DNA from: Candidatus Natronoplasma sp.
GTDB lineage: Archaea; Thermoplasmatota; Thermoplasmata; Halarchaeoplasmatales; Halarchaeoplasmataceae
Assembly: GCA_048621055.1 (NCBI GenBank)
Contig: JBMCXO010000002.1
Location: 1-39,384 of the forward strand
Direction of reading: 5' to 3'
DNA length: 39,384 nucleotides
The position numbers were made by a program, and so were the translations under genes. The notes beneath the pieces were generated by a model. The model saw only the letters and a list, made by a program, of their open reading frames with translations. It made no database searches and had not been told where the DNA came from. Positions 5,636 to 9,755 of this stretch are shown here, one piece after another. The first letter of the stretch is position 1. Every line of letters begins with the position of its first letter.

Positions 5636-8295
5636 CACAAAATAGAGGAATCTCTAAGAGGATAGGTAGTATACAATTCGCTTACATGTCTCCCGAGGAA
5701 AAGAGAGATCTTTCCGCTACAAAGATAATCACGCCTGACACTTATGACGACGACGGTTTTCCTATCGAGATGGGATTGATGGATCCTCATCTCGGTGTGA
5801 TAGAACCCGGTTTACGATGTAAAACGTGCGGAGGAAGGGTGGACGACTGTTCCGGCCATTTCGGTCACATAGAGTTGGCCATGCCGGTGATCCATATCGG
5901 ATATGTAAAAGAGGTCAAAAAGCTGCTTAGATCAACATGCAGCGATTGCGGCAGAATACTTCTACCTGAAGAAGAAAGTAACCAGTATGTAGAAAGGATG
6001 GAAGAGATGAAGAACATGGGAGCGGACCTTTTAGATACTCGTTCCCTAGCCAAAGATATCTCTAAAGAGGCTAGAAAGAACAACGTCTGTCCTCATTGCA
6101 AAACTGAACAGCGGAAGATTAAGTTAGACAAACCGACTACATTCCGAGAAGAGAACACCAAATTGACAGCTAAAGAAGTAAGAGCTAGGTTGGAAAGGAT
6201 CCCTGACGAGGATCTGTGGCCGCTGGGTATAAACCCCGATGTCACCCGACCAGAATATATGGTTCTGAAGGTTCTTCTAGTCCCGCCCGTTACCGTTAGA
6301 CCATCCATAACCTTAGAATCCGGTGATAGATCAGAAGACGACCTCACTCACAAACTTGTAGATATATTGAGGATCAACCAAAGGTTACGGGAGAACAGGG
6401 ATGTAGGTTCTCCACAGCTCATCGTCGAAGATCTGTGGGATCTGCTGCAATATCACGTCACCACTTACTTTGATAATCAAACTTCGGGCATACCTCCAGC
6501 ACGTCACAGGAGTGGGAGAACCCTCAAAACATTGATACAGAGATTGAAAGGAAAAGAAGGGCGATTCAGACAGAATCTGAGCGGAAAAAGAGTCAATTTT
6601 TCCGCCCGTAGTGTGATATCTCCCGATCCGTGGCTTTCTATAAATGAGGTCGGAGTCCCAGAAAAAGCCGCACGAGAACTCACCGTTCCGTTGAAAGTTA
6701 CACCTATGAATCTGGAATACGCGAGAGAGATAGTGGGGAGAGGGCCTTCACCCACAAAGGACGGAGAGTATGTACCTGGTGCGAACTACATGATAAGACC
6801 TGACGGTAGAAGGATAAAAGTCACCGAAAAGAATTCTGAAACCGTAGCTGAAAAAGTCGAGCCCGGCTTTACGATAGAACGAGAGCTAAAAGATGGGGAC
6901 ATAGTACTTTTCAATAGACAACCGTCACTGCATCGTATGTCGATGATGGCACACGAAGTGAAGGTCGTTCCTGGAAAAACTTTTAGACTAAATCTTGCCG
7001 TTTGTCCACCGTACAATGCGGATTTCGACGGCGATGAGATGAATCTTCATGTTCTTCAGGGTGAAGAAGCAAGGGCTGAGGCTACGGTCCTGATGAAAGT
7101 CCAGGAGCACATCCTTTCTCCAAGGTTCGGCGGTCCGATAATAGGAGCGATACAAGATCATATCAGCGGACTTTTCTTCCTCACTCATGATAATCCCTCA
7201 TTCACCAGAGAAGACGTTGTCAGTATATTTTCAAACCTTAAAACCGAGAGTTTTCCCGACCCAATAGAAGAAGACGGTGAGAAAGTATGGAAAGGCAAAG
7301 ATATCTTCACCCATTTCCTGCCCGACGGTCTGAATATAGAGTTCCAGGCATCTATATGTGAAAAATGTGACACATGCGATAAAGGGGAATGTGATATAGA
7401 CGCTTATGTGATAATCAGGGATGGAGAACTAATCAATGGAACCATAGACGAAAATGCCGTAAGTCCCTTCGCAGGAGATATAGTCGATAAGTTGGCTAGA
7501 GATTATGGGGCTAACGTTGCGAGAAAATTCATCGATCAAATCACCACCATAGCTCTAGGTGTTATCACTTTACGGGGCTTCACAACAAGTATAGATGACG
7601 AGGAGATCCCTGATGAAGCTATCAGGCAGATCAACTCTTTACTTGATAAGGCAGAAAATAATGTGAGAGAACTGATAGAAGCCTATAGAGCGGAAGAACT
7701 AGAAGAACTCCCCGGAAGGGGGCTCAAAGAGACGCTGGAACTGAAGATAATGAAAGAACTCGGTAAAGCTAGAGACAACGCCGGGCAGATAGCTAGTAAA
7801 CATCTTGGATTGGGTAACAACGCTGTTGTGATGGCTAGAACAGGTGCAAGAGCTAGCATGTTGAACCTCACTCAGATGGCCGGTGCATTAGGACAGCAGG
7901 CGATCAGGGGAGAAAGACCCAGTAGAGGTTTCGAGGAGAGGACTCTCTCACATTTCAAAAGAGGCGAACTGGGTGCCGAGTCAAAAGGTTTCGTCAAGTC
8001 ATCTTACAAGGAAGGCTTGGATCCTGTGGAGTATTTCTTCCACAGTATGGGTGGTAGAGAAGGTCTCGTTGATACTGCCGTCCGTACCAGCAGGTCCGGA
8101 TACATGCAGAGACGTTTGATAAATGCACTCGAAGACCTGATGGTAGATAACGACGGGACCGTAAGAAATTCAGCAGATACCGTCGTCCAGTTCAAATACG
8201 GAGAGGATGGTGTGGATCCGATGAAGAGCAAGAGAGGAGAGGCGATCGATATAGAGGATGTTATACGTGATTTCAAAACAAGGGGTGAGAAATGA
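5632..8295 (+). CDS. rpoA1: DNA-directed RNA polymerase subunit A' (Rpo1N)
   Basis: 887 aa. N-terminal zinc sites CKTCGG...[10 protein letters not shown] and CSDCGR...CPHCK, catalytic [27 protein letters not shown] start/stop overlap with rpoB. Confidence 0.97.
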
Positions 8296-9755
8296 TGGCG
8301 AAGAAGGACACCATAAACGCCCTAACACGTAGAGGTCTAGATGAAGAAACTGCGAAAAAACTTGCGGACGAAGACTTTTTACTCGGCGACGTGAAATCCG
8401 CCTCAAAAGAAGAGTTGGAGGAAATTCTCGAGGAAGAAGAAGCGAAGAAGGTCAAGGAACTTGTAGGTAAGAAAGGCAAAAAGAAAAAATCTAAACAAAA
8501 AAAGAAGAGCGAAGAAGAACGAGAGACTAAAAAACCAGAAGAGTTCATACCAGATAAATTCGACGAATTGGAGGGGACCGCGAAGGAGATAAGAGAGCTG
8601 GCAGAGTCCAAAGGCTACGATTTTCCTAGGGCGATCATCACTAAGACTGCAGAGGGCATTGAAAATCAAAATATCCCAGAAGACGATTATGAGGATGTTC
8701 TTGAGATGATAAATGAGAGGTACCAGAACAGGAAAGTCGATCCCAAAGAATCAGTCGGTATAGTCGGCGCTCAGTCCATAGGAGAGCCGGGAACGCAGAT
8801 GACAATGAGAACATTCCACCATGCAGGTGTCGCGGAGATAGGAGTCACTCAGGGACTACCTAGGATGATCGAGATCGTCGACGCAAGGAAGGTCCCAAGC
8901 ACACCTTCTATGGAGGTGCATCTTGAAGAGGAACTGAAAGACGATAGAGACGAGGCTAAAAGGATCGCTTCCAGGCTCGAGATAACTAGATTAAAAGATG
9001 TTGCTGACGTCGAGATAGACATGGCGGAAACGAACATAGTCATAAAACCGGATATGGACAGCCTGAAGAACAAGAATATAGAATTGGATGATATAGTAGA
9101 AAAATTGAGCAAGTCTAGAGGAGTCGAAGGAAAAGTCACCGTTTCAGGAGACGAAATACAAATAGCCGTCGAAGAGGGTAAATTCAGTCTACTTCACGAG
9201 TCTGTTGAAAATGCAAAAGATATGAAGATCAAAGGTGTAAAAGGCATAGAAAGAGGTGTCATCAGGAGGGACGGAGGAGAGTTTGTGATATACACTGAAG
9301 GTTCTAATCTTGAGAAAGTCCTAAAGATGGATGGTGTCGACATCGAAAAGACCAGGACCAATAGTCCCTTTGAGATATACAACGTACTCGGTATCGAAGC
9401 TGCAAGGAACTCAGTAATCCACGAAGCTAAAAACACCTTGGACGAGCAGGGTCTAGACGTGGATATACGTCACGTTATGCTTGTTGCGGACATAATGACC
9501 AATGAAGGCGACCTGAAGGCTATTGGTAGACACGGAGTTTCCGGTAAAAAGACAAGCGTACTAGCAAGAGCTGCCTTCGAGATCACTAGTCAGCATCTTT
9601 TGAGAGCGGCTATAATCGGCGAGGAAGACGAACTCAGCGGGGTCGCTGAGAACGTGATAGTGGGACAGCCAATAACACAGGGGACCGGAGATGTAGATGT
9701 CAAATACACAGGATTCCCATCCGGCATGAGTGCCCAAAAAGAGGAAGAGGAGTAA
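8292..9755 (+). CDS. rpoA2: DNA-directed RNA polymerase subunit A'' (Rpo1C) with an about 85-aa N-terminal extension
   Basis: 487 aa. Conserved core [23 protein letters not shown] and trigger-loop/C-terminal blocks ([17 protein letters not shown]). ATGA overlap with rpoA'. The N-terminal about 85 aa are additional (see findings). Confidence 0.95.

Follow-up and report, generated by a model that had tools for sequence, protein, structure and literature searches.

The rpoA'' Locus and the Start of Its Product

Archaeal RNA polymerase (RNAP) is commonly described as if it were one uniform enzyme, similar to Pol II and built from 11 to 13 subunits. In the 39,384 nt of Candidatus Natronoplasma sp. 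analysed here (contig JBMCXO010000002.1, assembly GCA_048621055.1; this whole stretch is called the window in the following), the genes rpoH-rpoB-rpoA'-rpoA''-rpl30e-nusA follow each other on the plus strand and, according to NCBIfam, form the classical archaeal RNAP operon (Table 1). The A'' subunit (Rpo1C) encoded therein by rpoA'' carries an N-terminal arm conserved throughout its archaeal lineage, in which a small, independently folding domain, predicted to adopt a double helix-hairpin-helix fold, (HhH)2, is connected to the A'' body by a disordered, lysine-rich tether. The identity of the gene has been established by several matches: its product reaches 464 bits against TIGR02389 (equivalog cutoff 420.65) with residues 111-471 covering profile positions 2-365, is spanned by Pfam Rpb1_5 over residues 95-423, matches solved Rpo1C chains at 1e-100, and contains the trigger-loop motif GEPGTQMT at residues 164-171. 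The open reading frame (ORF) is the genuine rpoA'' of an uncultured archaeon related to Thermoplasmatota. Its position and its N-terminal protein sequence had been given in a first-pass annotation of the same DNA, and both have proved exact upon translation.

Table 1. Genes of the RNAP operon and features of rpoA'' in the window.
Feature	Position (nt)	Strand	Evidence or remark
rpoH	1710-1976	+	NCBIfam match
rpoB, unsplit	2012-5635	+	NCBIfam match
rpoA' (Rpo1N), 887 aa	5632-8295	+	NF006336 1434.9 bits, TIGR02390 1399 bits
Shine-Dalgarno-like GGGGTGA (putative function)	8282-8288	+	3 nt before ATG 8292, 6 nt before ATG 8295; read from sequence
rpoA'' (Rpo1C), 487 aa	8292-9755	+	TIGR02389, Rpb1_5, solved Rpo1C chains
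Tandem ATG ATG start codons of rpoA''	8292-8297	+	second ATG at 8295
(HhH)2 domain, residues 2-58	8295-8465	+	AlphaFold2, Foldseek, family profile, dN/dS
Poly-lysine tract, residues 59-81, net +9	8466-8534	+	composition, AlphaFold2
Junction segment, residues 82-98 (tether end, into first A'' helix)	8535-8585	+	AlphaFold2 secondary structure and pLDDT; P. furiosus A'' homology from residue 99
Canonical A'' body, residues 99-487	8586-9755	+	Pfam, TIGR02389, solved A'' chains
rpl30e (L30e)	9826-10116	+	NCBIfam match
Archaeal nusA	10119-10556	+	NCBIfam match

The first ATG of rpoA'' (8292) overlaps the stop codon TGA of rpoA' (8293-8295) in an ATGA and is directly followed by the second ATG. Since most orthologous A'' N-termini begin with MAKKDT and M2 is invariant, both in an alignment of 38 diverse orthologous A'' N-termini (A1), which forms the basis of the family profile used below, and in a full-length A'' alignment (A2), the second ATG is probably the conserved and true start. 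Regarding the length of the extension, residue 6 of Pyrococcus furiosus A'' is aligned to residue 99 of the window protein, and the solved A'' chains of Sulfolobus, Saccharolobus, Thermococcus, and Pyrococcus comprise 391-397 aa; therefore about 93 residues are additional at the N-terminus. The existence of an extension relative to typical A'' had been recognized in the first-pass annotation, which had set its length somewhat too low, at about 85 aa.

A start further downstream is not viable, because the next Met codon after that of residue 2 is the one of residue 139, and initiation at M139 would delete conserved A'' helices. The N-terminus is shared by all 120 best database homologs (470-504 aa, identity down to ~50%), which follow the pattern MAKKDT(I/V)NAL.RRG...A.KLA..G..LGDVK.AS.EEL and continue into a lysine-rich stretch. 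An in-frame stop has been found 0-18 codons 5' of the MAKKDT start in the orthologous species loci L001-L007, and within at most 2 codons in seven more loci. We have further compared the codons with those of the closest species genome (L001, 86% amino-acid identity), for which synonymous sites are saturated, and have obtained a ratio of nonsynonymous to synonymous divergence (dN/dS) of ~0.07 for the (HhH)2 codons (nonsynonymous differences per site, pN, 0.093; synonymous, pS, 0.635), next to 0.11 for the canonical A'' helices 99-145 and 0.03 for the catalytic body. Taking into account this low ratio, the upstream in-frame stops, and the conserved N-terminus, the extension is translated and under purifying selection. 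An internal or mis-called start has been ruled out by the Met-free residues 2-139 together with the upstream stops and the low dN/dS; the ATGA overlap, which had been put forward in the first-pass annotation as an argument for translation of the extension, is indeed present and agrees with these results.

Fold of the N-Terminal Domain

An AlphaFold2 (AF2) model calculated on A1 has placed five helices at residues 2-13, 18-26, 31-36, 39-43, and 48-58 with a predicted local distance difference test score (pLDDT) of 88.7. The predicted arrangement is that of the (HhH)2 topology, in which two helix-hairpin-helix (HhH) units are joined by a connector helix. Comparison with the PDB by Foldseek has yielded the RAD51 N-terminal domain as the top match (template-modelling score 0.72-0.75, root-mean-square deviation 1.7-2.2 Å, 27-30% identity over 57-60 columns, probability 0.99-1.0), followed by NusA-AR, XPF, ERCC1, UvrC, FAAP24, Hef, and RadA, so that nearly all neighbours are (HhH)2 or related SAM-like helical domains. 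Searches of PDB sequences with the A1 profile point in the same direction. The profile matches Topoisomerase V (Topo V) at 7e-17, a value summed over many (HhH)2 repeats, of which the best single one reaches 18.6 bits and an independent E-value of 0.022 and is marginal on its own; further matches are UvrC (0.006), the NAD-ligase LigA (0.01), and the C-terminal repeats of NusA (0.02), and the profile also reaches Hef, DisA, FAAP24, XPF, and RadA/RAD51. Individually, 18 of the 38 N-termini in A1 match Pfam HHH_5 (best 7.1e-7), with other HhH families thereafter. The RadA-like (HhH)2 pattern that had been noticed by eye in the first about 45 residues has thus been recovered by profile, model, and structure comparison.

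The first hairpin is formed by R13-R14-G15-L16-D17, in which G15 is conserved to 89% and a second glycine is absent, and it is flanked by the conserved basic residues K4, K5, R13, and R14. Glycine hairpins of the G-h-G form in both HhH units, as in canonical HhH domains, are not present in the window A''. Judged from their residues, the A'' hairpins resemble the types found in the RAD51 N-terminal domain and in Topo V more closely than the canonical HhH.

One may ask whether the extension is a non-functional appendage of low complexity, or an annotation artefact with the true start inside the gene, as the composition of the lysine tract and the missing domain match of the window sequence when searched alone would allow. 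We regard this as very improbable: the extension occurs in all 120 best homologs, has a dN/dS of 0.07, folds confidently in the model, and is preceded by in-frame stops in orthologous loci, whereas any internal start would have to lie at M139 with loss of conserved A'' helices. A low-complexity-only extension has been ruled out by the confident fold and the purifying selection. The orthologs have given no internal start, and the HhH fold has been found by profile as well as by fold search.

The Lysine-Rich Tether

The (HhH)2 domain is followed by the extremely basic tract that the first-pass annotation had located at about 8466-8531, and for which residues 59-81 have now been determined as boundaries (Table 1). 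Among all ORFs of at least 80 aa in the six frames of the 39 kb, these residues are the only stretch with at least 12 K/R per 20 residues. No residue from 63 to 87 reaches a pLDDT of 50 in the full-length AF2 model, in which residue 96 opens the first canonical A'' helix. Across 42 orthologs, the segment corresponding to window residues 57-86 varies from 24 to 42 aa in length and from +1 to +18 in net charge, being positive in 42 of 42, and the mean identity over residues 59-81 is as low as 37%. Such conservation of composition without conservation of sequence is, as read from these alignments, the signature of a functional basic disordered tether.

At the nucleotide level, the coding sequence of the lysine tract contains runs of six, seven, and six A at 8484-8489, 8497-8503, and 8529-8534, which are potential slippage sites.

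Distribution and Alternative Arms

For the survey of species, one genome per GTDB species has been searched with the full-length alignment A2, and the 80 A'' loci obtained have been re-analysed by ORF and hidden Markov model (HMM). The KKDT-type (HhH)2 arm is present in 36 of them, mostly in Thermoplasmatota; the carriers comprise the window clade including Halarchaeoplasma and metagenome-assembled genomes (MAGs) from soda lakes, Methanomassiliicoccales, Methanomethylophilaceae, many Thermoplasmata, and JdFR-43. Hypersaline and soda-lake samples are the source of those named relatives that are closest to the window clade. The alignment of orthologs that the first-pass annotation had proposed has confirmed the extension in the best 120 homologs and delivered its taxonomic spread. 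Arm-less A'' subunits of roughly 360-385 aa occur in Methanolobus, Methanothrix, Archaeoglobaceae, Geoglobus, Methanoperedenaceae, ANME-3, and Mnemosynella, and the arm is also missing in a few MAGs labelled Thermoplasmata and in the solved A'' subunits. Among larger groups, the Methanosarcinales and Archaeoglobi have none.

A larger search by HMM with A1 against 1.84 billion cluster representatives has returned 222 proteins at E ≤1e-3. Among the 150 of them that were listed, the domain lies at the extreme N-terminus in nearly all; 33 contain the A'' core, and the remainder consists mostly of short fragments, besides a few Topo V-like proteins with multiple repeats. A word-indexed homolog search with A1 has retrieved 11 short fragments only.

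Other lineages carry different elements at the same N-terminal position of A''. In six loci (L040, L057, L058, L067, L068, L069), a lysine-rich tail of roughly 70-110 aa is the only addition. In these A'' proteins, which are of the Thermoplasmatales type, we have observed the tail to be rich in lysine and threonine, to resemble histone H1, and to have no folded domain ahead of the A'' body. Two or three canonical HhH domains of the GhG type are found in the arms of L036, L041, and L059 (HHH_5 1e-23 to 1e-37), and such tandems of A'' relatives match DNA repair and polymerase families; in L036, the N-most domain is of the KKDT type and stands alongside the canonical ones. A length of 600-836 aa is attained by some A'' proteins, of which P0148 and P0234 contain additional HHH_5 domains in the arm. 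A further arm, here called type 3, is an unrelated domain of ~120 aa starting with LAWKDT (LAWKDT..AP..Y.VDF...) in six loci; it has been assigned to L037, L046, L049, L052, and L063 and also to L032 and L077, which include a DHVE2 MAG, a Thermoplasmataceae MAG, and other MAGs labelled Thermoplasmatales, and the A'' of L077 contains two copies of it together with one (HhH)2. The type-3 domain has no Pfam match, and its profile has reached RsmE at an E-value of 0.21 only in the PDB, with nothing meaningful besides. That it might be a diverged (HhH)2 has been ruled out by an hhalign probability of 0.1 between A1 and the alignment of type-3 domains (A3). The mass of RpoA2 from Thermoplasma acidophilum, 56.6 kDa versus 43.7 kDa in Thermococcus kodakarensis (PMC7325993), is consistent with an N-terminal arm in Thermoplasma, which, judged from the Thermoplasmataceae locus, is probably of a non-HhH type.

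The (HhH)2 arm is not strictly confined to Thermoplasmatota, because it is present in L064 (labelled Ca. Syntrophoarchaeum butanivorans) and L034 (a Methanocellales MAG), in which it stands on A'' bodies closest to the Methanosarcinales type of Methanothrix, Methanolobus, and Methanoperedens (60-67% identity, versus 44-46% to the window). This suggests either an older origin with subsequent losses or a transfer of the module. The N-terminus of A'' is thus a modular hot spot with at least four alternative arms, and we regard this as the most interesting aspect, which goes beyond the original finding.

Regarding the sources of these sequences, several contigs with Thermoplasmatota-type A'' (L020, L026, L028, L059, L002) are filed as Bifidobacteriaceae, Bacteroides, Eggerthellaceae, Proteobacteria, and Aenigmatarchaeota, and they are likely mis-binned in the public genomes.

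Full-text literature searches have brought up no account of such an arm, be it of HhH type or rich in lysine, at the N-terminus of A''/Rpo1C, and it goes unmentioned in PMC13257274 and PMC11515920, which treat the evolution of RNAP domains. The public databases already hold thousands of such sequences, and one of the 120 listed homologs, P0086, carries a precomputed HHH_5 match. The sequence fact is accordingly not hidden and only undescribed in the literature.

Further Features of the Window

Besides the arm of A'', the polymerase genes of the window show a second peculiarity. RpoB contains a 44-aa insertion, PDKCNECEEPLSEADLKWTNMGSGEDIAKIECRRCGGKMEVESN, encoded at 4037-4168 (RpoB residues 676-719), with two CxxC pairs and the appearance of a zinc ribbon. 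The RpoB of Pyrococcus and Thermococcus lacks this insertion, and both flanks align there to one residue (630 in P. furiosus, 635 in T. kodakarensis), and the window RpoB has 1207 aa versus the 1116 positions of the NCBIfam profile. Two very large ORFs encode strongly acidic proteins, one at 32762-36286 on the plus strand (1174 aa, isoelectric point (pI) 4.17, net charge -173) and one at 29462-32524 on the minus strand (1020 aa, pI 4.69). The majority of the window's proteins show a pI of ~5, which is consistent with a salt-adapted organism.

Proposed Function of the Arm

With moderate confidence, we propose that the arm acts as a sequence-nonspecific nucleic-acid tether, which would bind DNA and raise the hold of the polymerase on its template. 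Duplex DNA close to the enzyme would be contacted at its phosphate backbone, both by the poly-lysine tract and by the basic face (KK...RRG) of hairpin 1. From the general architecture of RNAP, the A'/A'' split, and hence the start of A'', would be located in the reduced foot region, at the periphery of the enzyme. The ~37 disordered residues between the helices ending at 58 and starting at 96 could span roughly 100 Å and might thereby reach downstream or upstream duplex DNA. With such a tether, the local affinity for DNA would rise and the polymerase would stay on its template more stably, above all when the ionic strength is high. Binding to DNA, the DNA segment concerned, and any consequence for transcription are inferred. 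A DNA tether is favoured because affinity for the nucleic-acid backbone is the common denominator of the (HhH)2, the lysine-tail, and the canonical-HhH arms, and the alternative arms of sister lineages occupy the same position on A''. Rpo13, the HhH repeats of Topo V, and an engineered T7 RNA polymerase, all treated below, serve as precedents.

Several points weigh against this proposal. The Foldseek E-values are all at least 0.2, which is due to the small size of the domain, and the window N-terminus alone has no HhH match in Pfam at E up to 10; searches of residues 1-85 and 1-145 against Pfam and NCBIfam have given noise only (LytR_C 0.05, TrmY 0.013). The HhH assignment is therefore significant only with the family profile and the structure model, and the resemblance that the first-pass annotation had read directly from the sequence holds for the family and its fold and not for the window sequence by itself. 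Furthermore, hairpin glycines normally offer backbone amides to DNA, and hairpin 2 of the window A'' (L46-E47-E48-E49, LEEEE) is degenerate and without glycine, with glycine frequencies at the hairpin 2 positions of only 18-29% in the family. The (HhH)2 domain of the window A'' is acidic with a net charge of -6, values in the family lie between -7 and +9 and average 0, and the surface positions D6, E18, D26, D33, E40, and E41 are conserved as acidic. Finally, a single HhH unit of Topo V has brought no improvement to an engineered T7 RNA polymerase (PMC12630135). Given the acidic (HhH)2 domain and a hairpin 2 without glycine, contact with DNA may be made mainly by the lysine tract in the window protein.

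A surface for contact between proteins, of the kind represented by the acidic repeats of NusA, would fit the acidic pattern as well. The (HhH)2 domain might then serve as a docking module for a transcription factor, a chromatin protein, or dimerisation, with the lysine tract as spacer or sole DNA contact. We assign a lower probability to this, the main rival of the DNA tether. It is in accordance with the net charge of -6, the glycine-free hairpin 2, the conserved acidic surface positions, and the lack of a conserved positive net charge in the family, as well as with structural neighbours such as NusA in RNAP complexes, ERCC1/XPF, FAAP24, and the RAD51 N-terminal domain on the histone (H4) tail; the coexistence of the N-most domain with canonical HhH domains in L036 could likewise mean distinct roles. 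On the other hand, the Topo V repeats are the best sequence-profile relatives, and sister lineages swap the arm for lysine-only tails or canonical DNA-binding HhH tandems, which points to nucleic-acid binding.

If the ligand is a nucleic acid, it could in principle also be RNA; the arm would then engage the nascent transcript, or link the polymerase with the ribosome or with factors of RNA processing. Lysine-rich disordered tails take RNA as readily as DNA, the foot region is used by RNA-processing enzymes in Pol II, and the operon neighbours L30e and NusA, although a weak context, bind RNA. We consider RNA as the ligand quite unlikely, however, as (HhH)2 domains are overwhelmingly binders of the duplex-DNA backbone, all significant A1 profile matches are DNA enzymes, and the canonical HhH tandems of the relatives match DNA repair and polymerase families.

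A wider and more speculative reading starts from the N-terminus of A'' being the split site of the largest subunit, the counterpart of the eukaryotic Rpb1 foot. It might have served as an evolutionary docking platform, on which DNA- or chromatin-reading modules, namely the KKDT-type (HhH)2, tandem canonical HhH domains, H1-like lysine tails, and the globular type-3 domain of 120 aa, would have been swapped repeatedly in Thermoplasmatota and some Halobacteriota, and the arm would be a regulated tether instead of a passive clamp. The acidic (HhH)2 might fold back on the lysine tract, or lysine modification might tune the tract; the polymerase engagement of template or chromatin would be controlled in this manner, and prokaryotes would have in the arm their own version of a regulatory appendage to the largest subunit. 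We regard this as unlikely, albeit attractive.

Returning to the DNA tether, the arm as judged from its sequence would belong among the lineage-specific nucleic-acid-binding appendages on RNA polymerase, with DNA as the presumed ligand. All solved archaeal RNAP structures derive from lineages whose A'' has no arm. If the proposal is true, a DNA tether is an intrinsic part of the enzyme in a large archaeal group, to which gut methanogens (Methanomassiliicoccales) as well as several lineages of halophiles belong, and this bears on promoter search, processivity, the behaviour on chromatin, and salt tolerance.

Comparison With Known Systems

Among known (HhH)2 proteins, the N-terminal domain of RAD51/RadA is the best structural match and has the same non-canonical G-h-x hairpin type as the A'' arm. 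It differs in that it is followed by a RecA ATPase core and functions within recombination filaments, whereas in A'' an RNAP subunit follows and hairpin 2 is acidic and without glycine. Topo V, the best sequence-profile match, contains 12 tandem (HhH)2 domains versus one in the window A''. Closer to transcription, the repeats AR1 and AR2 of NusA are, like the A'' domain, acidic (HhH)2 domains on the transcription machinery and are found among both the sequence and the structure neighbours; unlike it, they are placed at the C-terminus of a bacterial elongation factor and bind proteins (the alpha subunit's C-terminal domain, alpha-CTD, and lambda N).

The bacterial alpha-CTD itself is, like the A'' arm, a small helical domain with HhH-type elements that is flexibly tethered to a core RNAP subunit. 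It binds DNA, is located at the C-terminus of alpha and reads UP elements and activators, whereas the A'' arm is located at the N-terminus of a β'-type subunit. A resemblance to the alpha-CTD had been suggested in the first-pass annotation, and at the family level it has not been borne out: PF03118 (RNA_pol_A_CTD) has no match in the window A'', the 25 Pfam families listed from the search of the 38 N-termini do not include it, and it matches only the whole tandem-HhH arms of two distant relatives, in which no single stretch is significant. The comparison is thus to be taken as an analogy and not as family-level homology.

A further analogue within the archaea is Rpo13 of the Sulfolobales, which is small and helical, has ten lysines among the 20 residues at its end, and reaches into the DNA entry channel (PMC2675907). 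Like the A'' arm, Rpo13 (Sulfolobales/Desulfurococcales) is a lineage-specific element of archaeal RNAP that combines a helical domain with a lysine-rich tail and for which a nonspecific DNA contact has been proposed (PMC2675907). Unlike Rpo13, the A'' arm is a predicted (HhH)2 fold fused to the N-terminus of A'' by a disordered tether, and as both have no sequence relationship, the likeness is a functional analogy only.

A parallel in design is provided by engineered enzymes. Tethering of HhH or Sso7d modules has made polymerases more processive and more tolerant to salt, and a T7 RNA polymerase to whose N-terminus a nonspecific DNA-binding domain was tethered has likewise gained salt tolerance, for which a linker of ~30 aa has been best, compared with the 24-42 aa of the natural A'' tether (PMC12630135). 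If the proposed function is correct, the arm of A'' would be the natural counterpart of these engineered fusions between a polymerase and a DNA-binding domain.

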